Positions 9,197 through 56,368 are shown, counted from the first letter of the stretch. The stretch is 64,000 bases of DNA from Candidatus Magasanikiibacteriota bacterium (GCA_052033375.1 JBPOJQ010000006.1:24791-88790), one strand, 5' to 3'. Made by a program: numbers and translations. The notes: generated by a model from the sequence alone, not told the origin.

Positions 9197-9925
9197 CTAT
9201 TTAAAATTATTATACCCACTCTTCTCGACTTCATGTGCCAATTCAGGACCACCACTCTTCACAATATTACCATCAATCATGATGTGAACTACGTCCGGCA
9301 CCACGTAATCAAGAATACGATTGTAGTGGGTAATCAATAGTACTCCAGTTTTCTCACTCTTAAATTTAACAATTCCTTCCGCAACGATTTTCAACGCATC
9401 CACATCAAGCCCGGAATCAGTCTCATCAAGTACCGCATATGTCGGCTCAAGAACCGCAAGCTGGAGAATCTCAGCTCGTTTCTTCTCTCCTCCAGAAAAT
9501 CCCGTATTCACATATCGAGTCGCAAATGCTGGATCCATTCCAAACTCTTTTATTTTTTCTACCAACTTTCGGTGAAACTCAAGAGGATTCACCGTAGCAC
9601 CTTTGAGCGAATTATACGCGAGACGCAAAAAATTAGAAATCGTCACCCCTTCAATTTCTGGCGGATACTGCATCGAGAGAAACAATCCATGCTTTGCTTT
9701 CTCATCTGTAGACATATCGGTCACGTCCACAGCGTCAACAATAATCTTCCCCTCAGTGACGGTATATTTTGGATGACTAAGTAGTGTATTTGCAAGGGTG
9801 GATTTCCCCGAACCATTCGGTCCCATAATCGCATGGACTTCACCTGGCTTAATCTCAAGATTAAGACCTTTTACAATCGGCTTTTCTTCTACTGAAACGT
9901 GTAGGTTTTGTATCTGTAAGCTCAT
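9197..9925 (-). CDS. sufC: Fe-S cluster assembly ATPase SufC
   Basis: MSLQIQNLHVSV...GPNGSGKSTL, plus ABC signature and Walker B. The start is taken at MSLQ; the ORF extends to 9985. Confidence 0.9.
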   Translation of the reverse strand: MSLQIQNLHVSVEEKPIVKGLNLEIKPGEVHAIMGPNGSGKSTLANTLLSHPKYTVTEGKIIVDAVDVTDMSTDEKAKHGLFLSMQYPPEIEGVTISNFLRLAYNSLKGATVNPLEFHRKLVEKIKEFGMDPAFATRYVNTGFSGGEKKRAEILQLAVLEPTYAVLDETDSGLDVDALKIVAEGIVKFKSEKTGVLLITHYNRILDYVVPDVVHIMIDGNIVKSGGPELAHEVEKSGYNNFK

Positions 9926-9932
9926 AATATAT

Positions 9933-10304
9933 TTATATAAGTGATTCTTGAGATGCTCTGAAGACAAGTAACGCACATTTTTCACGATTAATCCCTACAT
10001 CAATTCCAAGTAAATTGAGTACTTCAGCATCAGTTATTTTCTCAACCTCATCCAAACTTTTTCCTTTAATATACTCAGTAAATAATGATGCAGAGGCTTG
10101 CGAAATAGCGCATCCAGCACCTTCAAATCCGATATCAATAATTTTCTCTCCATCAGTTTTTACATAAACCGTTAATTCATCACCACACGTCGGATTATTC
10201 TTGTGCGCAGTATGTGTTGCATCCAAAACTTTCTTCTTATTCTTCGGATTGCGATACAGATCCAGAATATACTCTTTGTAAATTGTTTCCATTTCATGAT
10301 CCAT
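9933..10304 (-). CDS. sufU: SufU/IscU-type Fe-S cluster scaffold (NifU N-terminal domain)
   Basis: PTCGDELTVYV ... GAGCAISQASASL ... conserved cysteines. It is 4 nt from the sufS stop. Confidence 0.8.
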   Translation of the reverse strand: MDHEMETIYKEYILDLYRNPKNKKKVLDATHTAHKNNPTCGDELTVYVKTDGEKIIDIGFEGAGCAISQASASLFTEYIKGKSLDEVEKITDAEVLNLLGIDVGINREKCALLVFRASQESLI

Positions 10305-10305
10305 A

Positions 10306-11508
10306 TTATTTCTGAAATACATTAACCAAATCAGAGAGTGCAATATCCAGTCGCTGAATATCTTCTTCATTCGTATACAGGCCAATTGAAACGCGTGCAG
10401 TTCCCTGTGGCATACCCAACACGTTTACAAGCGGCATCGTACAGTGATGACCAGCACGAATCGCAATATTTTTTTCATTCAAAAATCCGGCGATATCATG
10501 TGGATGAATCCCTTCAATTGCAAACGATACAACTCCAATTCTTTTACCCAACTCATTCGTACCGATTATTTTTCCATATTTTGATACAACCTCAACAAGC
10601 TCTTTAGTTAAATTTTTCTCATGCTCTACAACAACATCCCAATCAATACCAGTAATGAATTTCAAAGCAGCTCCAAGTCCAATCACACCTGCAATATTCG
10701 GCGTACCCGCTTCAAACCTACGAGGAATTTCTGCCCACGTGGTTTTTTCATAACTAACCGTATCAATCATGTCTCCACCAAAACTTGCAGGGCTCAGCTT
10801 TTCCAATGCAGTAGTCTTGCCATAGACAATTCCAATGCCAGTTGGCCCATACATTTTGTGTCCTGAACATACCAAGAAATCACAATCCAATTTTTTCACA
10901 TCAATCTGTATGTGAGACACAGACTGTGCAGCATCAACAATGACGAATGCACCGACTCCATGAGCAAGTTTTGTAATCTTTTCAATCGGTAAAATAGTCC
11001 CAAGCGTATTTGATACATGTGCAACGCTCACGATTTTTACCCGCTTATCAAAATATTTTTCCAAATCAGCGTCTAGTTCAAATGTTTCGTTATTTACAGA
11101 CATAAATTGCAACTGGGCTCCAGTTCGTTTTGCAAGTTCTTGCCAAGGAATCAGATTTGCATGATGTTCAAATTCGGTCAACAAAATTACATCGTCTTTT
11201 GAAATGAGATGCTCAAGTCCATATGCAAGCTTATTGATCCCATCCGTAGTGCCTGAAGTAAAAAATATTTCTTTTTCTTCAGCGCCAAAAAATTGAGCCG
11301 TTTGTTTTCGAACTCCCTCATACATTTCACTCGCCTTTTCACTATCAGAATACACACCGCGATGAATATTTGATCGATACTGTGTATAATATTTGTTCAT
11401 TGCATCAAGGACACTATCTGGCGTAAGCGAACTTGCGGCGCTATCAAAATACACGTAGTCAGGACGGTTTTTGAGAATGTTAAATTGTGGGCGTATCTTT
11501 TCATTCAT
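10306..11508 (-). CDS. sufS: cysteine desulfurase SufS (class V aminotransferase)
   Basis: 400 aa. Lys in the SGHKMYGPTG motif (PLP site). C-terminal HHCTMPL with the catalytic Cys. Confidence 0.9.
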   Translation of the reverse strand: MNEKIRPQFNILKNRPDYVYFDSAASSLTPDSVLDAMNKYYTQYRSNIHRGVYSDSEKASEMYEGVRKQTAQFFGAEEKEIFFTSGTTDGINKLAYGLEHLISKDDVILLTEFEHHANLIPWQELAKRTGAQLQFMSVNNETFELDADLEKYFDKRVKIVSVAHVSNTLGTILPIEKITKLAHGVGAFVIVDAAQSVSHIQIDVKKLDCDFLVCSGHKMYGPTGIGIVYGKTTALEKLSPASFGGDMIDTVSYEKTTWAEIPRRFEAGTPNIAGVIGLGAALKFITGIDWDVVVEHEKNLTKELVEVVSKYGKIIGTNELGKRIGVVSFAIEGIHPHDIAGFLNEKNIAIRAGHHCTMPLVNVLGMPQGTARVSIGLYTNEEDIQRLDIALSDLVNVFQK

Positions 11509-11509
11509 A

Positions 11510-12565
11510 TTAGACAGCTAGATTTCGATGCATTCTTTCTTGCAATGTTATGTGTGCATTTTCATCAGAAATAGCATCCAGACAAGGAGATACATGTCCG
11601 TCTACAAAAAGCTGTGCAGCATTCTTCTCACTAATTCCCCTACTCTGTGCGTAGAATAATTTTTCTCGATCAATATGTGCAGTAGTGACTCCATGCGAAC
11701 ACTTCACATCACTATTTTCAATTTCAAGATTAGGCACTGCATTCACCTCAGCACTATTAGACAATACCAAACTATCTTCTTTCTGATATCCTGTACATCC
11801 TACAGACTTCTCATCAATATGGATAAGCCCCTGATACAATGCTTTTGCTTTGCCATTCAATACACCTTTGGTAAGCATATCAGACGTCGTGTGTGACGCG
11901 AGATGGTACATGGAATGGTACATATCAACTACAGTACTGCCTGCAAGCGCAAATATTCCCTTTACTTCAGCTCGACTCCCAGGTTCGTATAAATATGTTC
12001 TAATGTGAGACTGAATCAATTCCCCCTCAATAGTGCCTTCCATCCATTTAATCAATGAATTTTCTTGCAAATACGCATTTCGGAGTACTGTTCGCATACT
12101 TGTATGTTCAGGGTGAGCCACAAACGTAACCTCAGCACCTTTTCCTACAATAATATCAAGCGTATATCCGAGATAAGCACTTCCCGTAATCGATTCAGCA
12201 AGAATAACTTTTGCTCCATCTTCAATAGCAATAACCACATGAGTTCGTGAAGAATTCTGTATGTCTAACAAAAGAGTGTGAGTAGTCAACGTGTTTGTGT
12301 TTTTAACAGTAAAATAAAATTCATCAGTAGGCTGTGTATGTACTAAATTAAAAAGTGGAAAATCGAAGAGATGCTTACTTACAATTGAGCTAAGTTTTTC
12401 ATTTTTTTCTAAAATCGATTGAAGCGTGTTCTTATCACCAACTTCAGAATTTGAAAGTGAAACCACGCTCGATGATGCTTCGAATTTGAGCGTATCATAA
12501 GCCAGTGGCTCAAAATTCATGAGCATTCCTATACCATAGTGAATTGTATAGGGAGTTGATTTCAT
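11510..12565 (-). CDS. sufD: Fe-S cluster assembly protein SufD
   Basis: 351 aa SufBD-family beta-helix C-terminal region. It lies downstream of sufB. Confidence 0.8.
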   Translation of the reverse strand: MKSTPYTIHYGIGMLMNFEPLAYDTLKFEASSSVVSLSNSEVGDKNTLQSILEKNEKLSSIVSKHLFDFPLFNLVHTQPTDEFYFTVKNTNTLTTHTLLLDIQNSSRTHVVIAIEDGAKVILAESITGSAYLGYTLDIIVGKGAEVTFVAHPEHTSMRTVLRNAYLQENSLIKWMEGTIEGELIQSHIRTYLYEPGSRAEVKGIFALAGSTVVDMYHSMYHLASHTTSDMLTKGVLNGKAKALYQGLIHIDEKSVGCTGYQKEDSLVLSNSAEVNAVPNLEIENSDVKCSHGVTTAHIDREKLFYAQSRGISEKNAAQLFVDGHVSPCLDAISDENAHITLQERMHRNLAV

Positions 12566-12635
12566 AATTGACTTTTGTATAAATAATGTTAGTATCTGAT
12601 GAATCGGACGCCTCCACCGTCCGGAAGGAGAAAAA

Positions 12636-12821
12636 ATGACCAGGCGGAGACAAGAGGACCGACGTCGAAGGAGAAAGGCAGGTCGTCATGGTGTCGCGAT
12701 GTTGGATTTTCTCATGAAGATGGAAATCATCTCGAACTGCCTCGGAGAAAACGAACAAGTAGTAGAAGGGTCAGAGGAGGAGAATGGAGAGGAGGATCCT
12801 GCGGACGGCGAGAACGAGTAG
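12636..12821 (+). CDS. hypothetical 61-aa protein encoded in a GC-rich insert, antisense to the suf operon (Arg-rich N-terminus, hydrophobic core, acidic C-terminus)
   Basis: Textbook RBS ccggAAGGAGaaaaaATG. GC content is visibly far above the surrounding genes. Coding status is unproven. Confidence 0.3.
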   Translation: MTRRRQEDRRRRRKAGRHGVAMLDFLMKMEIISNCLGENEQVVEGSEEENGEEDPADGENE

Positions 12822-12929
12822 TCTCGCACCGTGTAGATGCCACGCGCTGCGCCAGACAAGTCTCCCACTCGGGATCGACGACTCTGGTGTGGCGCTTCTT
12901 AATTTTAAAATAATGTTACATACATTTGT

Positions 12930-14336
12930 TTACCCCACACTCCCTTCCATCTCAAGCTCAATAAGTTTATTCAACTCAAGCGCATATTCCAGCGGAAGTG
13001 ATTTAATTACTGGCTCAATAAAACCCGAAACTACCAAATTCATTGCAGCTTCTTCTGAAAGCCCACGTGATTGCAAATAAAAAATCTCATCATCACCTAT
13101 TTTTCCCACCCGCGCCTCATGCGCAATATCAGTCGTACTATTATTAATCTTCATGTACGGATACGTATTGGAAATTGCATCGTCCCCAATCAGAAGCGCA
13201 TCACACTCGACAGATACTTTTGAGCGCTCGGCACCTTTAGCAACTTTTACCAATCCTCGATATGAGGTGATTCCTCCATTAACTGAAATGGACTTTGCTT
13301 TAATGGTAGATTTCGTATCCGGTGCCACGTGAATTGCCTTGGCACCCGTATCCTGATTCTGTCCTGGACCCGCAAACGCAACTCCGAGACTGTCAGACCG
13401 TGCTCCACGTCCACGAAGAACAGATGATGGATAGAGCATAGTTGTGCCTGATCCCATATTTCCATTCACCCATTCAATTACCGCTTCTTCGTCGACAAGC
13501 GCACGCTTCGTATTAAGATTATAGGTATTCTTTGACCAATTCTCGATTGATGAATACCGGCATCGACCACCTTTTTTTACGAATATCTCTACTCCACCTG
13601 CATGAAGTGAATTAGCATTGTATCGTGGCGCTGAACATCCTTCGATATAGTGAAGCTCTGCACCCTCATCAACAATAATCAGCGTATGTTCGAATTGCCC
13701 ACCTTTTTCTGCGTTCATTCTGAAATAGGCTTGCAATGGCAACTCAACTTTCACATTCTTTGGTACATAAATAAACGTACCACCAGACCATACCGCCGCA
13801 TGAAGCATAATAAATTTATGGTCATTGATCGGAATACATTGTGTCATGAAATATTCCTTCACCAAATCAGGATATTGCTGTACTGCCACATCCATATTTT
13901 CAAAAATCACACCCTTCGCTTTGAGGTCATCCTTGATCTTGTGATATACCACATCACTGTCATATTGTGCCCCGGCTCCCCCCAGTGCTGTTCGTTCAGC
14001 CTCTGGAATTCCCAATTTTTCAAATGTTTTCTTGATATCCTCTGGTACCTCTTTCCAATCAGAAGATTCTTTCGCATCCGGACGAATAAAATAGACAATC
14101 TCATCGAGATTTAATTTCGATAAATCAGGCCCCCAGGTAGGAACTGTTGTTTGTTTAAAAAACTCAAATGCCTTGAGCCGTTTTTCAAGCATCCAACTCG
14201 GTTCTTTTTTCTGCTCTGAAATTTCACGAATAATATTTTCACTGAATCCTGGCGCAGTCTTAAAAACAGACCGGTCAGCATTTGCTGAGTCATACAAACT
14301 TCTATCTATCTCAATTATTTGTGGAGCCTTAGACAT
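12930..14336 (-). CDS. sufB: Fe-S cluster assembly protein SufB
   Basis: 468 aa. Conserved SufB C-terminal half: GGVEIFVKKGGRCRY ... DTGAKAIHVAPDTKSTI. Confidence 0.9.
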   Translation of the reverse strand: MSKAPQIIEIDRSLYDSANADRSVFKTAPGFSENIIREISEQKKEPSWMLEKRLKAFEFFKQTTVPTWGPDLSKLNLDEIVYFIRPDAKESSDWKEVPEDIKKTFEKLGIPEAERTALGGAGAQYDSDVVYHKIKDDLKAKGVIFENMDVAVQQYPDLVKEYFMTQCIPINDHKFIMLHAAVWSGGTFIYVPKNVKVELPLQAYFRMNAEKGGQFEHTLIIVDEGAELHYIEGCSAPRYNANSLHAGGVEIFVKKGGRCRYSSIENWSKNTYNLNTKRALVDEEAVIEWVNGNMGSGTTMLYPSSVLRGRGARSDSLGVAFAGPGQNQDTGAKAIHVAPDTKSTIKAKSISVNGGITSYRGLVKVAKGAERSKVSVECDALLIGDDAISNTYPYMKINNSTTDIAHEARVGKIGDDEIFYLQSRGLSEEAAMNLVVSGFIEPVIKSLPLEYALELNKLIELEMEGSVG

Positions 14337-32703: not shown

Positions 32704-33285
32704 TTGTCATGTATGGCATTACGCGACAGTCGCGACCCAAAAAAACTCATTGAACAAATCGGAGGTGGTCCCACTGAAAATAATTCATTCCACATCAACA
32801 AAGAAATCCCCACACCGGATGTTTCTTTGGGCACCCCACCAGCACGTGAAAGTGAAAAAAAATATGAAATACAGGAGAAAAAACCAGATACCCCCTCTGC
32901 TGAAGAACCAATAGAACATATTGAATCTTCAATAAAAACACTTACCAACAAATTACGAATGGGTAAAAAAAAGAAGACCATTATCCCCACAACCAAAGAT
33001 GAATTTACACTACGAGTAGAAAAAATAATGGAAGAAGGTTTGGGTGATGCTTATCGTGAACTCACGACTGTACAACGCGAAGAGTTCAAAATAAAAGGAG
33101 AAGAGACTGCATGGAAAATCCGCGAACTATTCAAAAAAACGCATATCAAAGTAAAAGAAATTTTTAGATTACTCGTAGAATGGTTGCGTCTACTCCCTGG
33201 AGTAAATAAATTTTTTATTGAACAAGAGGCAAAAATCAAGGCAGACAAAATCCTCACGCTCAAAAAACATCAAAATTTTGAATAA
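32704..33285 (+). CDS. hypothetical protein
   Basis: 193 aa, charged, no motif recognised. Confidence 0.4.
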   Translation: MSCMALRDSRDPKKLIEQIGGGPTENNSFHINKEIPTPDVSLGTPPARESEKKYEIQEKKPDTPSAEEPIEHIESSIKTLTNKLRMGKKKKTIIPTTKDEFTLRVEKIMEEGLGDAYRELTTVQREEFKIKGEETAWKIRELFKKTHIKVKEIFRLLVEWLRLLPGVNKFFIEQEAKIKADKILTLKKHQNFE

Positions 33286-33286
33286 T

Positions 33287-35863
33287 ATGCTGCCCTTCCT
33301 ACAATTCACGGCAGGTTTTCCGGAAACAGAAAATTTTATCGCACCAACGATTGCACTGCCTACTTTTGCAATTACCCTAACCGTCGTGGTTCTCGTATCG
33401 ACTGTCGCGACCATATATATCATCCGCAGTGTTCTTCACTCTCTCTACAAAGTACAAAAAGCATTCGATCGAGTAGTGCTACATATTCTTGTGCCAAAAG
33501 AACGAAAATCAGAAGGATCATCAAACGGGATGCAAGAAGACCGTTTGGAGCATGTAAAGGAAGAAATCGGAATCACAGAAACATTCTTCTCGACTATTGG
33601 AGGACTGAAACCAGAGCATGGGATCAAAACATGGTTTACCGGACGAAACGATCATATTTCGTTTGAATTAGTTGTTCATAATAATTTAATTAATTTTTAT
33701 ATTGGTGTTCCTCAAAAATTAAAGGGATTTGTCGAACAACAAATCAATGCGCAGTACCCATACGCTCATATTGAAGAAATCACTGATTATAATATTTTTA
33801 GCGAACACAGCTCGATTGTAGGTGCATATCTCAAAGGAAAGGCAGTCGGTGCTCTACCCTTTAAAACATACAAAAAAATGGATTCAGATCCCCTATCAGG
33901 AATTCTGAATACGCTTGCAAGAATACACGAGACAAACTCATCAGCAGCAATACAATTTGTCGTGCGAGTAGCAGATAAAAAATGGCGCAAAGAAGGTGTG
34001 CACATCGTGCGAGAAGTACGCAAAGGCAAGCCATTCGAAGACGTCATCCATGGAAAAAGTAAACTAGGCGGACTCATCACAGCTTTCAGTAGCGAGGCAA
34101 AAAGACAGATGATTGACTCAAAAGAAAGTATCAGAGAGAAAGAAAATTACCAGCTCTCAGCACTCGAGGAAGAAATGATGAAAGGTATCGAAGAAAAATT
34201 AGTAAAAGGTGGATTGGAAATCACTATTCGTGTCGTATCCTCTTCGGATAATCCAGAACTCGCCGGTCTCAATCTCGATAATATCGTCAATTCCTTTGCA
34301 CCATACAATCTCTATCGATACGGAAACTCGCTTGGAGCAATCATCCCAAAAAATCCCCAAAGTATTATTCGATCATTTATCTACCGATCATTTCATGAAA
34401 AACGTGCAACTATTGTAAACACCGAGGAAATGGCGGGATTCTGGCATCTTCCACTCCACTCGACCGAGGCACCCAATATCAAATGGCTCCTTGCACGCAA
34501 AGCTCCACCTCCACCAAACCTCCCTCACACAGGAATCGACCTCGGTCGTGTGCTGTATCGTGGTCAAGAATATCCCGTAAAGATGAAAGATGAGGATCGG
34601 AGACGACATCTCTATGTCATTGGTAAGTCAGGAAGTGGAAAATCAGTATTTATCGAAAACCTTGCAGTGCAAGATGTACTGAATGGCAAAGGTCTTGCAG
34701 TCATAGACCCTCATGGAGATTTTGCAGAATACGTACTCGAACATATACCCAAAGAACGTGCCGATGACGTGGTTATATTCAATCCATCAGATTTCGAACG
34801 TCCTATCGGATTGAACATGCTTGAGGCAAAGACAGAAGATGAGAAAGATTTTGTTGTGCAAGAGATGATAGCTATTTTCTACAAACTTTTTCCTCCCGAA
34901 ATGATTGGTCCGATGTTTGAGCATAACATGAGAAATGTGATGTTGACTCTCATGGCTGATTTGGAAAATCCAGGAACAATTATCGACATTCCCCGCATGT
35001 TTACCGATGACGCATATGTAAAAAAATATTTGGTAAAACTCAAAGACCCCGTAGTACGCGCATTCTGGGAAAAAGAAATGGCAAAAACAAGTGACTTCCA
35101 TAAATCAGAAATGCTCGGATATCTGATTTCAAAAGTGGGACGATTCGTCGAAAATGAAATGATGCGCAATATCATGGGACAACAGAAATCAGGATTTGAT
35201 TTCAGAGATATCATGGATAAGCAAAAAATTCTGATTGTAAATCTTGCCAAAGGAAAAACAGGAGAAGTAAATGCAAAATTAATCGGTCTGATTATCGTAG
35301 CAAAACTCCAAATGGCAGCACTCGGTCGTGCAGATCTACCAGAAGAAGAGCGCAAAGATTTTTATCTCTATATCGACGAGTTCCAAAACTTTATCACAGA
35401 CTCAATTGCAACTATTCTCTCAGAAGCCCGCAAATACCGCCTAGATCTGATTATCGCCCATCAATATCTTGGTCAATTGACAGATGAAAAAGGACGATCC
35501 GATATCAAAGACGCGGTACTCGGAAATGCAGGGACAATGGCAGCGTTCCGTATTGGGCCAGAAGATGCCGAATTACTTGCAAAGGAATTCTCCCCCGTGT
35601 TTGGTCCATACGACCTTATGAACGTGGAAAAATTCACTGCCAATATCAAACTTTTGATTGATAATGAGCCTACCAAACCATTCAACATGTCGACCTACCC
35701 ACCCACACGAGGAAGCAAGGAGTTGGGTAATGCGATTCGTGAACTTTCCCGCTTGAAATATGGACGTGACCGACGTATTGTAGAATCGGAAATCATGGAA
35801 CGAACAAGACTCGGTGAAAGCAGTGAAAATAGCAAAACAGACATGATCGAAGCAAGCCTCTAA
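33287..35863 (+). CDS. membrane-anchored P-loop ATPase of the TraG/VirD4/HerA-like (T4SS-DNA_transf / DUF87-type) superfamily
   Basis: N-terminal TM. Walker A VIGKSGSGKSV. Walker B LYIDEFQNF, followed by IIAHQYLGQL. The N-terminal about 170 aa is homologous to the protein at 58238-59656 (AQYPYAHIEEITDY versus AQYPDAEITEVEDY). Confidence 0.55.
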   Translation: MLPFLQFTAGFPETENFIAPTIALPTFAITLTVVVLVSTVATIYIIRSVLHSLYKVQKAFDRVVLHILVPKERKSEGSSNGMQEDRLEHVKEEIGITETFFSTIGGLKPEHGIKTWFTGRNDHISFELVVHNNLINFYIGVPQKLKGFVEQQINAQYPYAHIEEITDYNIFSEHSSIVGAYLKGKAVGALPFKTYKKMDSDPLSGILNTLARIHETNSSAAIQFVVRVADKKWRKEGVHIVREVRKGKPFEDVIHGKSKLGGLITAFSSEAKRQMIDSKESIREKENYQLSALEEEMMKGIEEKLVKGGLEITIRVVSSSDNPELAGLNLDNIVNSFAPYNLYRYGNSLGAIIPKNPQSIIRSFIYRSFHEKRATIVNTEEMAGFWHLPLHSTEAPNIKWLLARKAPPPPNLPHTGIDLGRVLYRGQEYPVKMKDEDRRRHLYVIGKSGSGKSVFIENLAVQDVLNGKGLAVIDPHGDFAEYVLEHIPKERADDVVIFNPSDFERPIGLNMLEAKTEDEKDFVVQEMIAIFYKLFPPEMIGPMFEHNMRNVMLTLMADLENPGTIIDIPRMFTDDAYVKKYLVKLKDPVVRAFWEKEMAKTSDFHKSEMLGYLISKVGRFVENEMMRNIMGQQKSGFDFRDIMDKQKILIVNLAKGKTGEVNAKLIGLIIVAKLQMAALGRADLPEEERKDFYLYIDEFQNFITDSIATILSEARKYRLDLIIAHQYLGQLTDEKGRSDIKDAVLGNAGTMAAFRIGPEDAELLAKEFSPVFGPYDLMNVEKFTANIKLLIDNEPTKPFNMSTYPPTRGSKELGNAIRELSRLKYGRDRRIVESEIMERTRLGESSENSKTDMIEASL

Positions 35864-40019: not shown

Positions 40020-40090
40020 TCGGGGATCGTCTAATGGTAGGACTACAGGTTCTGGACCTGTGTATCGGGGTTCGAATCCCTGTCCCCGAG
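40020..40090 (+). tRNA. tRNA-Gln (anticodon CUG)
   Basis: Manual fold. Acceptor TCGGGGA/TCCCCGA. D-arm GTCT-AATGGTA-GGAC. Anticodon stem ACAGG/CCTGT with loop TTCTGGA (CTG at positions 34-36). T-arm CGGGG-TTCGAAT-CCCTG. Discriminator G. CCA not encoded. Confidence 0.85.
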
Positions 40091-40098
40091 CTAAAAAA

Positions 40099-40130
40099 AG
40101 AATATCGCCAATTGGATATATTCTTTTTTT
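40099..40130 (+). terminator. intrinsic terminator after tRNA-Gln (GAATAT...ATATTC + T7)
   Basis: Seen in the sequence. Confidence 0.55.
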
Positions 40131-40142
40131 AAGTCAGAGATA

Positions 40143-40261
40143 AAGAGGGATTCGAACGAGGGAAGGGTGAAACCGTGAGGTTTCACTGGACTGAGGAAAG
40201 TACACGAAAACCCGAAGGTTTTCGTGATATGTTCGAATAGCGAAGCGCCCTGTCCCCGAGC
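40143..40261 (+). repeat. tRNA-Gln 3'-end-derived element 1: starts with an inverted copy of the tRNA T-arm/3' region (GAGGGATTCGAAC) and ends with a direct copy of the tRNA 3' end (CCCTGTCCCCGAGC); internal perfect hairpins
   Basis: Direct comparison with tRNA positions 40072-40093. Internal hairpins GTGAAACC-gtgag-GGTTTCAC and CACGAAAACC-cgaa-GGTTTTCGTG. Confidence 0.6.
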
Positions 40262-40306
40262 AAAATATAAATACACCCATATAGGTGTATTTATATTTAT
40301 GATAGT

Positions 40307-40407
40307 GAGAGGGATTCGAAGGACGCGAGAGAAGCCGAGCGTGCGAGGCTTCGGTGCGCAGCGCCCCGGTACCCGAACGGAGTGAGGGGGAATCCCTGTC
40401 CCCGAGC
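40307..40407 (+). repeat. tRNA-Gln 3'-end-derived element 2: same architecture (GAGAGGGATTCGAA ... GGGGGAATCCCTGTCCCCGAGC)
   Basis: 21-nt match to the tRNA 3' end with the TTCG of the T-loop deleted. Internal hairpin GAAGCC-gagcgtgcgag-GGCTTC. Confidence 0.6.
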
Positions 40408-40418
40408 TAGTGACAGTA

Positions 40419-40763
40419 TTAATCTTTGGCGCGACGATAAATGACACCAGTGATAATCGAAGCAATTAATGCAAAGGTTATTAGTACAGTAATCCAATTT
40501 TGAGTAACCAAATACCAGATGAGTGTTGCAAACATTTTGCAAAATCCATACACAAATTGTATGGCCACATTCAGACTTTCATAGATGATGTTAAAAATAG
40601 GAATTTGTATCATTCCTGTACTATTATTAACAATAACAAAACAGCTAATACTGATAATAGCTAATAGCGCTATAATTATCCATTCAATTTTGTGCTTTTT
40701 TGAGACCATATTATCATAAAAGACGGCGTAGCCATCTCTATATTTGTGTAGTTTTGCGACCAT
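40419..40763 (-). CDS. small hypothetical membrane protein (3 TM) at the edge of the AT-rich island
   Basis: 114 aa, hydrophobic. AT-rich composition like the island. Confidence 0.4.
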   Translation of the reverse strand: MVAKLHKYRDGYAVFYDNMVSKKHKIEWIIIALLAIISISCFVIVNNSTGMIQIPIFNIIYESLNVAIQFVYGFCKMFATLIWYLVTQNWITVLITFALIASIITGVIYRRAKD

Positions 40764-40880
40764 GTCCTAAGGAATAGTTTTTAGGTCTTAAATTTTTTTT
40801 ATTTTACGTCATTTAAGTATTAAAGGCAAGAAATTGTCTTTTTAGAATAAATTAGATACTATAGGGTAAATTACGATGCT

Positions 40881-42884
40881 ATGTATCTATCGCAACTTAT
40901 AGTAAGAAATTATAGATCAATAAAACAGTTAAATATTAATTTTGAAAAAGGAAAAAATATTATTGTTGGAAAAAATAACGCAGGAAAATCCAATATAATA
41001 AAGGCAATAGATCTTATACTTGGAGACACAAGTCCTACATACGAAAAGTTAGAAAATATAACTGATAATGATTTTTTCGGCGGTGACACTTCAAAAAACA
41101 TTTTAATTTTTGCAAAATTAAATCGTGAAGCAAAAGAACCTCTTAATTATGAGGAACTATACAAGTGCTATGGTTTTTATAGAGATACTAACCAGGTGAA
41201 TTTACCTGAAAATAATCCAGATATATTTTCTAGACATTTAGCTGTTTTATTTAAAACTAATCCTGAAGACTTGGAACGCGCAAGAAAAAAATATATTAAT
41301 CCAAAATTAAAAAATCAACGGACCTTTGAAAATGAATTTGATAACAAACATGAATTCGGCCTAGTATTTTATGCTCATAAAGATGATCACGGCAGAATTA
41401 ACAAAGAAATGAGATTTATATATAGAGAAGGATCTGGTCAAAATTGGGTGGTCGCTTTTTCGGCAGCAGCAAGGAATGGATTATTACAAAGCGCAATAAT
41501 TCCTTCTTTTAGGGATCCTCAGAATCAATTAAGAATAAGTAGTTGGAGTTGGTATGGAAAATTATTAAAAAGCGTGGTCGATCCTAATAATAAAAATTTA
41601 CAAAAAGCATTTCAAGAGGTTAAAATTGCATCTGAAGATGTTTTTTCTCAGCTTGAAACTAAAATTAATAATAGTAAAGTTAAAGTTGCTTTTCCAAATA
41701 CTAAAATTTCCTTTCAATTTAATCCAGACACTAAGCAGGACATTCATAAGAGTGCATTGGTTTATGTTGACGATGGTTTTAAGAGTCAATTACAAGATAA
41801 AGGATCGGGAATACAAAGTGCCGTGATAATAGGATTATTTGATTTTTATACACGAGAGATTGCACATCAAGGAAATTCATTGCTGGCAGTTGAAGAACCA
41901 GAACTCTATTTACATCCTCATGGACGAAGAGTGCTCTCTAACAGATTAGACGATTTTTTAGATGGGAATAAAAATCAAGTTATTATTACTACCCATTCAC
42001 CTGAATTTATTAGTACAGCAAATGATAGGTTTAATATAGTAGTGGCTTGTAAAAATGAAGAAGGAAAGACAGAGGCAAAAAATGTTAATTTTAGTAATGC
42101 TAAAGAAAGACAAATTTTAATAAAAAATCAAAATGCTGAAATGTTTTTTGCTGATTGTGTAATTTTGGTTGAAGGCGGAGGTGATAAATATATTCTTGAA
42201 ATGGTGGCTAAAAAATTTGGTGAAGAAAAAAATATAGGATCAAATTGGTTAAATGATAATAACATCTCTGTTATTCCTGTAATTGGAAAATCCGAATTTT
42301 ATAAATATGCTAAAAAATTAAAAGAAGCGAATATTGATTGTTATATTTTTGCAGATTTTGATTATCTTTGTTCAAAATTAGCAGAATGTTTAACCGAACT
42401 CGATTATAAAGAATTAAAAAATGATCATAACACTGTTAATGGTAAGATTAAAAAGATTCCAAATGAAAAATGTGAGGCGTGTAAACAAAATATTAAAGCA
42501 CAATCTTACCCTAAGAGAATAGATGAATTAACAGATAAAGCCCTAAAGACAGAGGTGGAATCTTTTATTGCAAAACTATCAGATAGTAAAATTTATATTT
42601 GTGCCGATGAATTAGAAGATCGTTATAGAGACAAAAACTTAATTAAAGGTATCAGTGGTAAAGAAGAAGCAGCTTTACATATAGTGGGGCATATTTTAGA
42701 AACTAATAAAGATATTAATGACCTTATTGAGTTAAAAGATTTTTGGAATATTTTTGATAAAATATTAGAACATAAAAAAATACCACCTAAAACACAAAAT
42801 AGCTCAGAAAAGAAAGTCCCCACAGACTTACCTAATGATCTTGATAGTAACTTAGAATTAGAATCAAATGAGAACATTTTTTAA
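40881..42884 (+). CDS. OLD-family ATP-dependent endonuclease: N-terminal ABC-type ATPase + C-terminal TOPRIM domain (GajA / P2 Old / AriAB-like)
   Basis: Walker A GKNNAGKSN. Walker B/D-loop LLAVEEPELYLHPHGRRVL. H-loop VIITTHSPEF. TOPRIM with CVILVEGGGDKYILE (catalytic Glu) and IFADFDYL (DxD). Length is 667 aa. First gene of a tight three-gene operon. Confidence 0.8.
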   Translation: MYLSQLIVRNYRSIKQLNINFEKGKNIIVGKNNAGKSNIIKAIDLILGDTSPTYEKLENITDNDFFGGDTSKNILIFAKLNREAKEPLNYEELYKCYGFYRDTNQVNLPENNPDIFSRHLAVLFKTNPEDLERARKKYINPKLKNQRTFENEFDNKHEFGLVFYAHKDDHGRINKEMRFIYREGSGQNWVVAFSAAARNGLLQSAIIPSFRDPQNQLRISSWSWYGKLLKSVVDPNNKNLQKAFQEVKIASEDVFSQLETKINNSKVKVAFPNTKISFQFNPDTKQDIHKSALVYVDDGFKSQLQDKGSGIQSAVIIGLFDFYTREIAHQGNSLLAVEEPELYLHPHGRRVLSNRLDDFLDGNKNQVIITTHSPEFISTANDRFNIVVACKNEEGKTEAKNVNFSNAKERQILIKNQNAEMFFADCVILVEGGGDKYILEMVAKKFGEEKNIGSNWLNDNNISVIPVIGKSEFYKYAKKLKEANIDCYIFADFDYLCSKLAECLTELDYKELKNDHNTVNGKIKKIPNEKCEACKQNIKAQSYPKRIDELTDKALKTEVESFIAKLSDSKIYICADELEDRYRDKNLIKGISGKEEAALHIVGHILETNKDINDLIELKDFWNIFDKILEHKKIPPKTQNSSEKKVPTDLPNDLDSNLELESNENIF

Positions 42885-42896
42885 GATTTTCATAAA

Positions 42897-44360
42897 ATGG
42901 AAAGCAATAGATTTTTTCAAAAACTAAGTGAAGTATCTCCATTAGTAAACAATTACGCGTTTAATTTTTTTGAAATATCCAAGTATGGGAGTTTTAAAGA
43001 ATCACTTGAGAAAGTAAATCATAAAGATTTCATAAGTAAATGTTACGAAGGTTTTAAAATCGCTCAGGATAAATTAATCGAAAATATTTTGGAGATTGAA
43101 TCAGAAATTGAGAAAATAAAAAGCGAAATCAATGAATATGAAAGAGGTAAAAAGAAATCATCTTTAAAAGATGATTCTCATTATTTAGGAATGAATCGAC
43201 AAAAAAATGACCTAATTTTTCAAAGAGCTTCTTTTAGAGAATTAGCCAATGTTATTGTCTGGACAATTTTTTTAGAACAAAGAACAGATATTAAGAGTTT
43301 TATAAAATTAAGTAACAGTGATGGATATTTAAAAGACAGAGATATTGAAAATTGCATAAAGGTTGCAAGACAAATAAATAATGATAGTAATACTTTTGCT
43401 CTAATTACTGACATTACCTCTACTCTTCATGTTGGAGACCTGATTGTAGTGGAAGAAGGTAAAATATCTGTAACTGAAGTTAAAAGAGATACTAAGATAA
43501 ATAATTTAATATCAAATATTGTTGAATATCCAAAAGATCCTAAAGATACAAAAATTTTTCTTGAAGAACTCATACAAACTTATGGTGTTAAGGGTGTTAA
43601 GCAGCTTCAAAGAAACATGCGTCAAATGATAAGAATGCATAATATTAAAGAGTACATTGAAAAAGATGAAGTTTTTGATTTTGATTTAAATCAAAAGAAA
43701 TATGCTTTTGAGGTTTCAACTCCGGATATAGATTTCATGAAATTCTTAGAAATGGCATTAGATGAGTTTTACAAACATGAAAGAAAAATGTTTGTTTTTC
43801 CTACAGACTGTTGTTTCGTAGGAATTGTAAGAAAAAATGGAGAAAAATCAGAAATAGCTTTTAAATTGGATTTTAAACATGACATATATCATAGACTATT
43901 TAAAAATTGGGACGAATGCGCGTTTAGTAATAAAGATAAGCCAGGATTTACAAAAGAAAATATTCCAGAAATGTTTTTATATCATAAGTTGGATATATAT
44001 TCTTTTAAAGACAAAGTATTTTTTCCGGCACAGCGGCCACTTTTTTTGAGTCTGAAACAGGAATATGTAATTGACTTGTTGACTGACAAGATTGCTATCT
44101 ATATTTATTTTGATCCAGATCGTCTAATAGAAATGGCTAAAGAAAGAAAATTAAAAATGGAATTTGTAAAAAAGACCTCGAAAATAAAAGATCATCCTTA
44201 TAAAAATGAATTTCCTTTTTTCGAAAAGGGTTATATGCAGGTAAGTAATAAGGAAACAAAACTAATAATAGGCTATGGAATTATATTGAGAATAGTTTAT
44301 GAATTGCAGTCTGGATATAATTTGATTGAACATTTAAAAGAAGACCTTAAAAAGATTTAG
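42897..44360 (+). CDS. 487-aa protein of unknown function, second gene of the OLD-family operon; possible PD-(D/E)xK-type core (LHVGDLIVVEEGKISVTEVK)
   Basis: 12-bp gap to the upstream gene. No P-loop or helicase motifs, so not a GajB/UvrD-type partner. GD...EVK spacing is compatible with a restriction-endonuclease-like fold. This is an inference only. Confidence 0.45.
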   Translation: MESNRFFQKLSEVSPLVNNYAFNFFEISKYGSFKESLEKVNHKDFISKCYEGFKIAQDKLIENILEIESEIEKIKSEINEYERGKKKSSLKDDSHYLGMNRQKNDLIFQRASFRELANVIVWTIFLEQRTDIKSFIKLSNSDGYLKDRDIENCIKVARQINNDSNTFALITDITSTLHVGDLIVVEEGKISVTEVKRDTKINNLISNIVEYPKDPKDTKIFLEELIQTYGVKGVKQLQRNMRQMIRMHNIKEYIEKDEVFDFDLNQKKYAFEVSTPDIDFMKFLEMALDEFYKHERKMFVFPTDCCFVGIVRKNGEKSEIAFKLDFKHDIYHRLFKNWDECAFSNKDKPGFTKENIPEMFLYHKLDIYSFKDKVFFPAQRPLFLSLKQEYVIDLLTDKIAIYIYFDPDRLIEMAKERKLKMEFVKKTSKIKDHPYKNEFPFFEKGYMQVSNKETKLIIGYGIILRIVYELQSGYNLIEHLKEDLKKI

Positions 44361-44366
44361 TTTATA

Positions 44367-45149
44367 GTGTTTACTATGAATTTTGATATAGAAGTTTTTA
44401 ATAAAAAAACTCAAGATTTTATTAAAGAAATAGAGCAAGAATTTGGTCATGAGATTAGAGTTGAATACATTGATTTAGAAGAAGGGCATAGTGGTTTTTG
44501 TAATGTCGATGAAACGGGTACACCAACTGTAACATTAAATTCCAATGAAAAAGATGCTGAGAAAATAAAACATTTTTTAATTCATGAAACTTATCATCTT
44601 AGATTACTATTAAATAAGTTTCCAATGTTTGCTTCTGTGGGAAATGCGCAGGTAGTCTATGTGCCAGAGTACTATAAATATATAAGTAACAATTTTTGGG
44701 ATAAAATTGTGCATTCATATTTTTATCCTAAAATAAAAAATGAACTAGATCATGATCCGTATAAACATTTCGAACCAGATTTTAATTTGATTAAAAATAG
44801 TTTATTGGAAAAGAAATTTAGTGAGAACTCAGATGACGTAAAAAAAATGCGAATAATCGGTTGGTATCACCAAATTTGGGCCGAAGGGAAAAAAGAGGAT
44901 CTATTAGAGTATGAGAGTTTAGTTAAGGAGTATCATAATAGTCTCGGTTTAAAAGAGAGCGAAAAAATGATTAAAATATTTGAAAAAAGAGATATTAAAA
45001 ATTCTAAGGATCTGATCGATATTTTCATTGAATTTTTTAATGCTATACACGAGGATAGAGAAATAATTTTAGTAAGTGAAGAGGTTAAATTGAGAGGGAG
45101 TTTTGAATTGCAGGTCGCATATTTTACTGTTTATAAGCTGGATAAATAA
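44367..45149 (+). CDS. HExxH zinc metallopeptidase-like protein (ImmA/IrrE/M78-like motif HETYH), third gene of the operon
   Basis: LIHETYHLRLL motif. 6-bp gap to the upstream gene. Length is 260 aa. Confidence 0.45.
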   Translation: MFTMNFDIEVFNKKTQDFIKEIEQEFGHEIRVEYIDLEEGHSGFCNVDETGTPTVTLNSNEKDAEKIKHFLIHETYHLRLLLNKFPMFASVGNAQVVYVPEYYKYISNNFWDKIVHSYFYPKIKNELDHDPYKHFEPDFNLIKNSLLEKKFSENSDDVKKMRIIGWYHQIWAEGKKEDLLEYESLVKEYHNSLGLKESEKMIKIFEKRDIKNSKDLIDIFIEFFNAIHEDREIILVSEEVKLRGSFELQVAYFTVYKLDK

Positions 45150-45250
45150 GTTCCTATTTCATCCCACAGCCAGAGCTAATAAAAAATACCCTATCCACGG
45201 GTATTTTGTTTTTACATTATCATGATATACTATATGCCTAATTTTAGTAT

Positions 45251-50329: not shown

Positions 50330-51367
50330 TTATTCCACAATCTTCGGTCGTAATTCTTTCAGAATATCTTCCAACTCCTCAAAACTTTCCACTTTCATCA
50401 ATTTCATCCGCAAATCTTTCGCTCCGTCCATTCTCTCCCCCATTCGTTCATTTTTGAAATACCACGCGAGATGTTTACGAAATGTAGGCATCGATCGTTT
50501 CTGAATTTCTTCTGGAGTAATACCATCAGCCTTGTTTTTCTTTCCCATCGCCCGGATACGTGACTGATACATCATATGGAGTTGTGCATGCTCCAATACC
50601 ACTCTCACTCGCTCAACCAGTGATACAGAAAAATCTGGATGCATATATTCTTTGAAAAACCATGGATTCCCGAGCGCCCCCCGAGCAATCAATACCCCAT
50701 CAGCGCCAGTAATCTCTAGAGCTTCATCGACCTGTCGTGGTTTGTGTATATCTCCATTTGCAAGTAGTGGAACAGTCGCGATTTTTTTTGCTTCAGCAAT
50801 TCTACCCCAATCAGAAACCCCAGTGTACCCCTGCTCTTTGGTACGACCATGTACCGTAATCAATTGTGCACCAGCTTCTTCGATTGCAGGAATGAAATAT
50901 TTGAAATCATCAGGTGAAGACCAGCCGAGACGAATTTTTATGGATACAGGAGTTGCACCAATTGCACGTTTAATTTCCCGAATGATATCTTGGGCAAGCT
51001 TTGGGTCTTTCATGAGGGCACAGCCATTAAAATTACTTGTAATTTTGTATACTGGACAACCCATATTGATATCAATACCTTCGGGGCCTGCATGCTCCAT
51101 CACAATCGCTGCTGCACGAGCCATCGTGAGTGGGTCTGAGCCAAAAATCTGCTGCACAATAGGGCGCTCTGCATCGACAAAATCAGTCATACCGAGAGTT
51201 TTTTCATTATCACGAACAATAGCTTCCGCAGAAACCATTTCACGAAACACGACATCTGCCCCGCCGATACTTCTCACAATTTGACAAAAGGCCGAATCAG
51301 TCATGTCAGCCATTGGTGAAAGCGCGAGAATTTTTTTATTTTTTTTCAAAATATTTGTAATCCACAT
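50330..51367 (-). CDS. tRNA-dihydrouridine synthase (Dus family)
   Basis: LSPMADMTDSAF ... NMGCP ... TIM-barrel FMN motifs. The start is taken at MWITN; the in-frame extension to 51460 lies in GC-rich foreign-looking DNA. Confidence 0.85.
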   Translation of the reverse strand: MWITNILKKNKKILALSPMADMTDSAFCQIVRSIGGADVVFREMVSAEAIVRDNEKTLGMTDFVDAERPIVQQIFGSDPLTMARAAAIVMEHAGPEGIDINMGCPVYKITSNFNGCALMKDPKLAQDIIREIKRAIGATPVSIKIRLGWSSPDDFKYFIPAIEEAGAQLITVHGRTKEQGYTGVSDWGRIAEAKKIATVPLLANGDIHKPRQVDEALEITGADGVLIARGALGNPWFFKEYMHPDFSVSLVERVRVVLEHAQLHMMYQSRIRAMGKKNKADGITPEEIQKRSMPTFRKHLAWYFKNERMGERMDGAKDLRMKLMKVESFEELEDILKELRPKIVE

Positions 51368-51473
51368 AGAGATAATATGCAGTGGGTGTTGGAAAGACGC
51401 GTACGGTCCCCCCGAGACACCCACCACTCTGACATGTACCGCACTACTCCACGCGCTCATCAGCGCGAGAATA

Positions 51474-51608
51474 CTACGGAGAATCGTTAATCAACAGCGT
51501 ATACAGGAGTACGACTTCTGCAACGCGGTCGATGAGCCGGACCAACACAGCGCAGGGTCCGCCACGGAGTTGCTGACTCAGGGCGACCAGCGCTTCGATG
51601 AACGACAT
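51474..51608 (-). CDS. hypothetical 44-aa ORF in GC-rich island
   Basis: RBS AGGGGG 6 nt upstream of the ATG. Very weak call. Confidence 0.2.
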   Translation of the reverse strand: MSFIEALVALSQQLRGGPCAVLVRLIDRVAEVVLLYTLLINDSP

Positions 51609-51621
51609 GAGAACCCCCTTG

Positions 51622-51867
51622 TTACAGAACCACTTCCATGAAGAGTCCTTCGACCATCTCGACGACCTCCGCCCAGAACTGGACGAGGCTCTCGACGAGA
51701 TTCGCCAGGAATTTCGGATGAGTGACATCCGATTTCAGGCGACCGAGGTCGACACCGAGCTGACCGATGATGGTCGCACCCGCACGAAGCAGGCAGACCG
51801 GGATCTCGGAGAGAGCCGCGATCATGCGATCAGTCGTGTCCATATCTTCCACCGCTCCAATTGCCAT
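51622..51867 (-). CDS. hypothetical 81-aa protein in GC-rich island
   Basis: GGAG about 9 nt upstream of the ATG (MAIGAVEDMD...). Composition is foreign to the host. Confidence 0.3.
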   Translation of the reverse strand: MAIGAVEDMDTTDRMIAALSEIPVCLLRAGATIIGQLGVDLGRLKSDVTHPKFLANLVESLVQFWAEVVEMVEGLFMEVVL

Positions 51868-52018
51868 GTTTTTCACTCCTCTCACCAAGACTTATTTCTT
51901 GCTTGGTTTGCATCTATAAAGAAAAATTCTTTGCAGATGTAAACCAAATATACCTTGATTGCCCGGGGTGCGCCTTTTGCTAAGCACATGCCCCGGACAA
52001 TCGTTTCACCCCCTTGCA

Positions 52019-52372
52019 TCACGCAAGAACCTTCCCAGCACTCTTGCGAATGAATGCTCCAGGATTGACCACCCTCTCCTCGAGCTCAAGCGTGAGTTGC
52101 ACGTACTTGATCAGGGCATCAGCCTGAACAGCCGTCGACGCGATGATCTGTTCCCCGACGGGTGGATCCAATATGATGAGGGATCGGCCGTCAGCCATGA
52201 TCTTGAAGTTCACGGTGTAGATCTGGCCTGCAGGAGACCTGTACTCATACACCGTAGTAATCGGATCTTGCGGACGCTTTTGCGGCACCTCTGTTGAAGA
52301 AATGCGTTTACCAGGAGACCTGAACAGCTTCCCCAGCTGTTCACCGTACACATTCACCATCTCTGATTTCAT
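52019..52372 (-). CDS. hypothetical 117-aa protein in GC-rich island
   Basis: RBS AAGAGG 4 nt upstream of the ATG (MKSEMVNVYGEQL...). No family recognised. Confidence 0.35.
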   Translation of the reverse strand: MKSEMVNVYGEQLGKLFRSPGKRISSTEVPQKRPQDPITTVYEYRSPAGQIYTVNFKIMADGRSLIILDPPVGEQIIASTAVQADALIKYVQLTLELEERVVNPGAFIRKSAGKVLA

Positions 52373-52779
52373 AAAACCTCTTGGTTGCACAGGTTTTGTC
52401 TATGGGCTATCCACCTCTCGGTTCTAAGACCAAAAGACATAGGATAATATCCCATTTCCAGACTCTTTGTCAAGATTAGTGAAATTATCCACAGAATATC
52501 AAAAAAAGGCTATTTTAACAAGAATTACACTCATTTGACATCACGCGGACACTTGATACAATTCTATTGTCATTTACAATTCAACCATATTCTGTGGAAC
52601 TAGGGTGCAATTCCCTGACTGTGCCGCAACGGTATGTCCTAAGCTTGGCGAAGGATGAGAGTCCGATCTTCAGAATATGAGTTATCCCGAGCAGGAAGTA
52701 GAAACGCCATATTTTTGGATACCGGCGCATACCCACTTTTATTCCTTTCTCGAGGAATTTTTTTGTCTCAAAATTATCT

Positions 52780-56178: not shown

Positions 56179-56368
56179 AATCCTCAATTACTTCGTAGTG
56201 GACAAAATAATATTCGGCTTCGGGGTTTTGTATATATATTCAGTATCTCATTTTCCCCGTCGGCCGCTTTTTTATACCACAGATACTTTTCACAATACAC
56301 AGATTCCACAATACACAAAAGCATCTCATACAACAAAGCGACCATCACAACACTATTTCGCGTTGTGT

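Follow-up and report, generated by a model that had tools for sequence, protein, structure and literature searches.

The window, the whole stretch of DNA analyzed here, is 64,000 nucleotides in length and contains a suf operon on its minus strand. The operon is composed of sufB, sufD, sufS, sufU, and sufC, all identified with Pfam, and genes for a class-V aminotransferase and an Rrf2-family regulator are located upstream of the suf genes. sufD and sufS are 1 bp apart, and the genes beyond sufS overlap. A spacer is located between sufB and sufD. The earlier note on this DNA had described it as a 365-bp GC-rich insertion; the insertion is real, GC-shifted, and purine-rich on the plus strand, and its length is 364 bp. 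The suf genes and the features of the spacer are listed in Table 1, in which A, B, and C are the cassette genes described below.

Table 1. Positions and strands of the suf genes and of the features identified in the sufB-sufD spacer, counted from the first nucleotide of the window.
Feature	Position	Strand	Description
sufC	9197-9985	minus	Pfam
sufU	9933-10385	minus	Pfam
sufS	10306-11508	minus	Pfam
sufD	11510-12565	minus	Pfam; 351 aa; downstream neighbor of the spacer
sufB-sufD spacer	12566-12929		364 bp; equivalent to a 2-bp junction in L001, L003, and L006
Sigma-70-like promoter (predicted)	12568-12595	plus	-35 TTGACT (12568-12573), 16-nt spacer, TG-extended -10 TAGTAT (12590-12595); from promoter scan
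11-nt direct repeat, left copy	12581-12591	plus	AAATAATGTTA
5'-UTR hairpin	12605-12623	plus	CGGACG-CCTCCAC-CGTCCG; -8.9 kcal/mol; between predicted transcription start and Shine-Dalgarno sequence
Shine-Dalgarno sequence	12625-12630	plus	AAGGAG; 5 nt before the ATG
61-aa ORF	12636-12821	plus	Includes stop; residues 1 to ~50 homologous to L009 A; last nine codons (EDPADGENE-stop) homologous to the end of C
Deletion junction	12784-12792	plus	Relic B Shine-Dalgarno sequence and ATG retained (AGGAGGAGAATG, ATG at 12784); GAGGAG microhomology on both sides
Antisense-unit terminator	12844-12906	plus	13-bp outer stem (12844-12856/12883-12895), inner hairpin, then TTCTTAATTTT
11-nt direct repeat, right copy	12908-12918	plus	AAATAATGTTA; 11 nt from the sufB stop codon
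sufB	12930-14336	minus	Pfam; 468 aa; upstream neighbor of the spacer in the operon

The core of the spacer (12605-12898) is 56.5% GC and 61% purine on the plus strand, compared with 40.4% GC for the window. The GC-richness alone is not unique, because approximately 20 other stretches of at least 150 nucleotides in the window exceed 53% GC. Among those of the stretches that were mapped to genes, this was the only one noted in an intra-operon spacer.

An ORF of 61 aa, antisense to the operon and preceded by AAGGAG five nucleotides before its ATG, had also been reported in the earlier note, and both the ORF and its ribosome-binding site are exactly as claimed. The GC-rich stretch contains ORFs of 60-104 aa in all frames, so a lone 61-aa ORF says little. 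Its meaning is to be drawn from comparison with the sequences of relatives. A 104-aa plus-strand ORF at 12599-12913 was rejected as a gene; it has no family match, and relatives hold differing cassette ORFs over that span. The literature was also searched for intergenic or antisense features at the sufB-sufD junction, and no relevant result was obtained.

Related inserts and the genes they carry

A genome scan with SufD identified eight loci (L001-L008), all from uncultured MAGs. The record labels of these loci conflict, with seven placed in Gammaproteobacteria and one in Candidatus Magasanikbacteria. An additional locus on a Logan contig (L009) was reached by a protein search with an L004 ORF and contains the fourth cassette. 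Four further loci, L030-L033, are identical to L004. Searches for identical proteins returned no record of the SufB, SufD, or 61-aa sequence of the window, so this genome is absent from the collection searched.

The sufB-sufD junction is 2 bp in L001, L003, and L006, 7 bp in L008, and 18 bp in L007. The junction of L005 holds a sense-strand P-loop kinase gene and no cassette. Inserts of 445 bp and 743 bp are present at the junction in L002 and L004, respectively, and the ends of both are homologous to the window spacer. Because the junctions of relatives are short and the inserts share homologous ends, the spacer is an insertion and part of a small family known only at the sufB-sufD site. The members of this family are referred to here as cassettes. 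A comparison of sufB-sufD spacers among relatives had been suggested in the earlier note as a check. In this comparison the junction is 2 bp in three genomes, and homologous inserts are present in four lineages, including the window. L001, L003, L005, L006, L007, and L008 are the cassette-free members of the clade. Every known cassette copy sits immediately upstream of sufD.

The P-loop (adenylate-kinase-like) gene between sufB and sufD is present in L005 (2500-3000) and in L009 (1506-2036). It encodes approximately 166 aa on the sense strand and has a host-like GC content. In L005 it is translationally coupled to sufD, and its stop codon overlaps the sufD ATG (GCATTATGAAATC). Because this gene is a different insertion at the same place, the sufB-sufD junction is a recurrent insertion point. 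L005 and L009 are close relatives (sufD dS 0.24, kinase dS 0.16), one of which is empty and the other filled. In L009, approximately 890 bp are located between two copies of the 10-nt sequence ATTATGAAAT, and a single copy is present at the empty L005 site. The difference between the two loci reflects a recent insertion or, alternatively, an exact loss.

The fullest cassette is that of L009. It contains three ORFs, A (66 aa), B (97 aa, with a 50-nt overlap with A), and C (84 aa). The L004 cassette contains B and C and has lost A, and the L002 cassette contains only a divergent B (29-38% identity). Protein B is acidic, with a pI of 4.5.

The window cassette aligns with that of L009 in two blocks by blastn. 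Positions 3-222 align with L009 positions 1-220 at 72% identity and cover the promoter and A, while positions 230-343 align with L009 positions 769-873 and cover the C tail and the terminator. It follows from this two-block alignment that approximately 548 bp, composed of B and most of C, are absent from the window relative to L009. The window ORF and L009 A have a common central helix (V..L.FLM.M..IS...GE.E), while their tails are not conserved. The C-terminus of the window ORF corresponds to EEPADGDNE-stop of cassette C. Because the central helix matches A and the tail matches C, the 61-aa ORF is an in-frame fusion of A with the nine terminal codons of C. The match between window A and L009 A at the protein level is weak alone (tblastn E 0.38), and their homology rests on the DNA alignment. 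The sole indel between the two in the A region is 3 nucleotides long and in frame.

Among the four cassettes, C is absent wherever B is absent. Parsimony on these four suggests that the window fusion arose by deletion from an A-B-C arrangement, and not by build-up from A.

Selection differs among the ORFs. ORF C has a dN/dS of 0.30 (bootstrap CI 0.13-0.71), which indicates purifying selection. ORF B has a dN/dS of 0.65 (CI 0.40-1.12), which is not distinguishable from neutral, and its frame is held at 92-97 aa in three lineages, at identities as low as approximately 30%. The window ORF, of type A, has a dN/dS of 0.66 over 49 codons (bootstrap CI 0.25-1.58) and is likewise not distinguishable from neutral. 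The selection on C and the preservation of the B frame suggest that these are real genes, at least in the parent cassette.

Expression signals at the cassette ends

The end of the spacer adjoining sufD contains a predicted promoter directed antisense to the operon. It has 9 of 12 hexamer matches, 16-nucleotide spacing, and an upstream TG; approximately two such sites are expected by chance per 900 nucleotides. The predicted promoter is nearly invariant in all four cassettes, in a comparison where host synonymous sites are saturated (dS 1.0-1.5). Its -35 part overlaps a 15-nucleotide leader that is located directly upstream of the sufD ATG on the opposite strand. The cassette-free L007 retains ATACAAAAGTCAACT before sufD.

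The 5'-UTR hairpin (CGGRY...RYCCG) is kept in all four cassettes, where a single compensatory substitution replaces an A-U pair with G-C; four cassettes are too few for this to be statistically decisive. The hairpin may be an operator or an RNA stem. Its loop, at 12611-12617 in the window, is conserved in the four cassettes as C[CG]T[CT]CAC. In the window and in L002 the loop is complementary to the downstream Shine-Dalgarno sequence (CCUCC or CCUUC with GGAG or GAAGG). This complementarity hints at an alternative pairing that would sequester the Shine-Dalgarno sequence, or at a protein-binding site.

A strong Shine-Dalgarno sequence is present in all four cassettes. It leads the first ORF of every cassette, and in L009 it leads B and C as well. 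The C ORF of L004 does not have one.

The end of the spacer adjoining sufB contains the terminator, with the pattern GCGCGCTGCRCCAGA-N15-30-TCTGGYGYRGCG. The hairpin has a value of -33.2 kcal/mol on the plus-strand RNA and -24.4 kcal/mol on the suf-sense RNA. As in an intrinsic terminator, the hairpin is followed on the plus strand by the U-rich sequence UUCUUAAUUUU; the suf strand has no U-tract. In the alignment of the four cassettes, 96% of cells are paired. The positions that vary show G-C/G-U and U-A/U-G exchanges, which maintain pairing only on the plus strand. Because the pairing changes fit the cassette strand only and the suf strand has no U-tract, the terminator is one-way and lets suf transcription pass. 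A simple terminator scanner did not flag this structure because its loop is branched and longer than 8 nucleotides.

The cassette ends are 85-100% conserved among lineages in which neutral sites are saturated. The spacer contains only two conserved local hairpins, and both can be assigned to the antisense gene, one as its 5'-UTR stem and the other as its terminator.

Origin of the cassette and alternative readings

Cassette ORFs have a GC3 of 0.57-0.69 with a coding-type periodicity (GC1>GC2<GC3), with the exception of L009 A, which has a GC3 of 0.49. The window 61-aa ORF has GC1, GC2, and GC3 values of 0.63, 0.37, and 0.58, respectively. The host suf genes have a GC3 of 0.29-0.35. A GGAG or GAGG sequence within 20 nucleotides upstream of the start was found in 0 of 50 host ORFs (those of at least 150 aa in the whole window), where approximately three are expected by chance, and the host appears to start translation without Shine-Dalgarno sequences. 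Since the cassette is led by such sequences and the host ORFs are not, the textbook ribosome-binding site is itself a mark of foreign DNA. For the same reason, the AAGGAG site may not work in this host. Judged by GC3, Shine-Dalgarno usage, and absence from several relatives, the cassette looks foreign.

Proteins A, B, and C were compared with 5.8 billion proteins, and only the cassettes themselves were recovered. A profile of B searched against 1.84 billion representatives returned self-matches and three marginal large proteins, each matched in several stretches, which were treated as spurious. A, B, and C have no match in Pfam, PHROGs, PADLOC, NCBIfam, PDB sequences, phage and plasmid collections, or IMG/VR protein patterns. 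No sequence or fold similarity to toxin or antitoxin families was found for the cassette proteins, and they do not have the homology that defines a type II system. The protein families of A, B, and C are undescribed. Among known systems, the element comes closest to horizontally acquired ORFan islets and may be one of a toxin-antitoxin type. The suggestion in the earlier note of an acquired small gene holds in part: the DNA is foreign and the 61-aa ORF is homologous to L009 A, but the ORF is a deletion product, and selection on it is indistinguishable from neutral.

Other segments of unusual composition or content were observed in the window. Two GC-rich patches (51300-52400 and 56200-58000, up to 64% GC) contain ORFs with a GC3 of 0.6-0.78 and no Pfam match. 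Examples are located at 57351-58004 (minus strand, 217 aa) and 56369-56842 (minus strand, with a Shine-Dalgarno-led internal start at 56725). The patches are probably other foreign ORFan insertions in the same genome, and their ORFs show no similarity to proteins A, B, and C. An AT-rich island (40020-45150, 27-32% GC, GC3 0.17-0.23) adjoins a tRNA-Gln(CTG) gene at 40020-40091. It contains genes for an OLD-family ATPase/TOPRIM nuclease (40881-42884) and a 487-aa protein without a Pfam match (42897-44360), and a 260-aa unannotated ORF (44367-45149). This island looks like a tRNA-linked defense islet of the Gabija or another OLD-nuclease type. An 881-aa VirD4/TraG-type type IV coupling protein is encoded at 33218-35863, and an unusual 681-aa fusion of PPIC-type rotamase domains with SecD/SecF at 60906-62951.

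The spacer is probably what a deletion has left of a small, self-contained transcription unit that was acquired horizontally and inserted antisense between sufB and sufD. The ancestral type of this unit, represented by L009, would have been composed of a promoter, a 5'-UTR hairpin, a Shine-Dalgarno sequence, the genes A, B, and C, and a terminator acting on the cassette strand only. In the window lineage, a deletion of approximately 548 bp between GAGGAG microhomologies would have removed B and nearly all of C. The same deletion would have joined A in frame to the final nine C codons and left the promoter, hairpin, Shine-Dalgarno sequence, start codon, and terminator intact. The unit is probably still transcribed, giving a predicted monocistronic RNA of approximately 300 nucleotides, complementary to the suf mRNA in the stretch between sufB and sufD. 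If translated, the predicted 61-aa protein would be Arg-rich at its N-terminus and acidic in its tail, with a single amphipathic helix.

A, as a best guess, would be a small protein that binds nucleic acid and regulates its own cassette by acting on the hairpin or palindrome adjacent to the promoter. It is a putative autoregulator because its N-terminus is Arg-rich and a palindrome or hairpin adjoins the promoter. B and C, again as a best guess, would form a selfish pair of effectors similar to an antitoxin and a toxin, and the window copy would be an orphaned regulator drifting toward loss. Effects on suf would be incidental. They would include the lost translational abutment of sufB and sufD, now 364 nucleotides apart, and possible head-on polymerase collisions. 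sufD would now depend on the conserved A/U-rich leader ATACAAAAGTCAATT, which is also kept by the cassette-free L007. Antisense regulation of suf is a possible side effect of the element and would not be the reason for its existence. Across the loci, one foreign cassette at one site is seen in a putative series of decay states: A+B+C, B+C, B only, A fused to the C tail, and the empty site.

The spacer could instead be dead DNA in this genome. Transcription and translation would then have ceased, the ORF, promoter, and terminator would be fossils, and the 61-aa ORF would have stayed open by chance after the deletion. The dN/dS of A is consistent with this, as are the apparent lack of Shine-Dalgarno use in the host, the ORFs of 60-104 aa in every frame of the stretch, and the decay of the cassette that is visible in every lineage; a fusion in frame would also be expected by chance in one case out of three. 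However, the promoter, hairpin, Shine-Dalgarno sequence, ATG, and terminator are all intact in the window, and the ends are conserved where neutral sites are saturated. Conservation between the window and L009 covers the central helix of A and not the tails, and the sole indel in the A region preserves the frame. Dead DNA is a possible reading on this evidence, although a somewhat unlikely one.

Mobility was considered as well. The 11-nucleotide direct repeat that brackets most of the spacer has a chance probability of approximately 0.004 for the two AT-rich flanks and may have arisen by target-site duplication or mark a recombination joint. Direct repeats of the kind left by target-site duplication are present in the window (11 nucleotides) and in L009 (10 nucleotides), and they are also compatible with microhomology recombination. 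No terminal inverted repeats joining the insert ends were found, and no second cassette copy was found in the 64-kb window by blastn or by a motif search with mismatches. The invariant 20-mer TTGACTTTTGTATAAATAAT returned 13 metagenome and 7 viral loci, all of which are unrelated AT-rich promoter-like chance matches. A viral scan with the 15-mer terminator arm returned chance matches only, none of which had a matching 3' arm. On inspection, the boundary sequence is GTTACAT, no GTTRRRY core is present there, and the arms GCGCTGCGCCAGA and TCTGGTGTGGCGC do not contain RYYYAAC or GTTRRRY boxes. The sufB-sufD site contains a single cassette, and no array is present there. By this inspection of the sequence, readings as an integron attC or an IS200/IS605-type element were ruled out.

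A mobile element of the MITE, PATE, or integron-cassette type that is not autonomous and is moved by a transposase or recombinase from another locus would account for the direct repeats in the window and L009, for the presence and absence of the insert in close relatives, for its patchy distribution and foreign composition, and for the combination of conserved ends with a variable interior. The hairpins would then be recombination sites and not transcription signals. This reading is unlikely. The window contains a single copy without terminal inverted repeats, the scans with end sequences found no copies elsewhere, and GTTACAT stands in place of an attC-type GTTRRRY core. The two hairpins also do not match one another as the ends of IS200/IS605 elements do. 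All copies are located at one place upstream of sufD with differing flanking repeats, and the interior differences are deletions of one ancestral content rather than different cargo.

The sufD genes indicate another route. The sufD of the window, compared over positions 11400-12565, and that of L001 have 86-97% DNA identity (dS 0.30), compared with 72-86% in the rest of the locus, including sufS (sufB dS 1.02). This recombination tract within sufD, with 89-97% identity, ends at or near the sufB-sufD junction. Because the window and L001 share a high-identity tract in sufD, sufD has been exchanged between lineages, and a cassette beside sufD could travel with it. Between L004 and L009, the cassette has a dS of 0.36-0.59 and the host sufD a dS of 1.15. 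The occurrence always at the same site, the differing flanking repeats, and the recombination tract in sufD fit sufD-anchored recombination better than transposition. Homologous or homology-facilitated illegitimate recombination anchored in sufD is therefore favored over transposition as the inferred route of import.

A selected regulatory function was also weighed. In this case the promoter would drive an RNA antisense to the sufB-sufD intercistronic region, transcriptional interference or dsRNA-dependent cleavage would tune the ratio of SufB to SufD(SUC) or overall Fe-S assembly, and the ORFs would be secondary. The near-consensus predicted promoter faces the operon head-on, conservation is much higher at the promoter and terminator ends than in the interior, and the same ends persist with very different interiors (A only, B only, B+C, and A+B+C). 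The terminator also spares suf transcription, with a weaker hairpin and no U-tract on the suf strand. However, six loci (L001, L003, L005, L006, L007, and L008) are without the element, and because several clade members lack it, the element is dispensable for suf control. The foreign GC3 and Shine-Dalgarno signature, together with the purifying selection on C, indicate an imported protein-coding unit. Conservation of the -35 sequence may reflect its second role as the sufD translation-initiation leader, which is kept in the cassette-free L007. A regulatory function as the selected role is decidedly unlikely.

A more far-reaching proposal is that A-B-C is an undescribed family of tiny selfish cassettes that spread by sufB/sufD recombination and persist by addiction. 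B and C would be antitoxin-like and toxin-like, and A an Arg-rich autoregulator that binds the 5' hairpin. The promoter would have been co-opted to set the ratio of SufB to SufD, and the window copy would be a domesticated, regulator-only stage. As a whole, this proposal is quite improbable.

The earlier note had also raised a structured RNA embedded in the operon transcript and had pointed to an SRP-tetraloop-like motif. The motif is present (GTCCGGAAGGA at 12619-12629), and the 11-nucleotide GUCCGGAAGGA is the only likeness of the spacer to SRP RNA. Its GUCCGG is the 3' arm of the 5'-UTR hairpin running into the Shine-Dalgarno sequence. Rfam cmscan at gathering thresholds identified only the tRNA-Gln in the whole window. 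No relevant match was found at 12400-13100 on both strands at E<=10, and this includes the SRP RNA covariance model; the inserts of L002, L004, and L009 have no match at E<=1. Folds of the whole spacer are no better than those of shuffled sequences (z = -1.28 for the plus strand and +0.13 for the suf strand). A structured RNA in the suf transcript or antisense to it (an SRP-like RNA, riboswitch, or leader) would fit the GC-rich composition in an AT-rich genome, the two conserved hairpins, and the motif, but it is extremely improbable given the Rfam and folding results, an interior that is replaced or deleted between lineages, a codon-position GC periodicity that points to coding sequence, and the assignment of both hairpins to the antisense gene.

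Significance and comparison with known systems

Reading the spacer as the remnant of an imported transcription unit explains an odd intra-operon spacer without a new RNA. Between sufB and sufD, an Fe-S assembly operon that is essential and tightly coupled accommodates 0.3-0.9 kb of foreign DNA predicted to be transcribed antisense, and GC-rich genes led by Shine-Dalgarno sequences can persist in a host whose own genes carry none. If A, B, and C are a true toxin-antitoxin-like or defense unit, they would define new families, and if the antisense promoter truly affects suf, an invader would have been captured for regulation. As the host is uncultured, the finding is of limited practical value.

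Integron gene cassettes are similar in that they are short ORF-bearing units with an imperfect palindrome at the end, conserved ends, and differing content. The sufB-sufD cassette differs from them in having no attC core or array and in having its own promoter, and its differences in content are deletions.

Cis-antisense RNAs are known within or opposite operons, for example the Listeria excludons and the cyanobacterial IsrR/isiA pair. The likeness here is that the predicted promoter of the cassette is antisense to an operon of iron and Fe-S homeostasis. The difference is that the predicted cassette transcript covers only imported intercistronic DNA and no host coding sequence, and most relatives are without the cassette.

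Type II and tripartite toxin-antitoxin modules include those of the paaR-paaA-parE type and the TAC systems. The cassette resembles these in its two to three packed or overlapping small genes under one promoter, in the palindrome adjacent to that promoter, and in its acidic middle protein B. The patchy distribution, the frequent degeneration, and the finding that C never occurs without B are also shared. The cassette proteins have no similarity to toxin-antitoxin families, and with four cassettes the analogy extends to how the unit may work and not to membership.

The closest comparison is with ORFan genomic islets. The cassette is distinguished from these by its very small size (0.3-0.9 kb), by its antisense position inside an essential operon between genes that otherwise abut, and by promoter and terminator ends that are far better conserved than its content. 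It resembles them in its atypical GC3 and translation signals, its patchy distribution, its lack of homologs, its decay by deletion, and the difference in its presence between close relatives.
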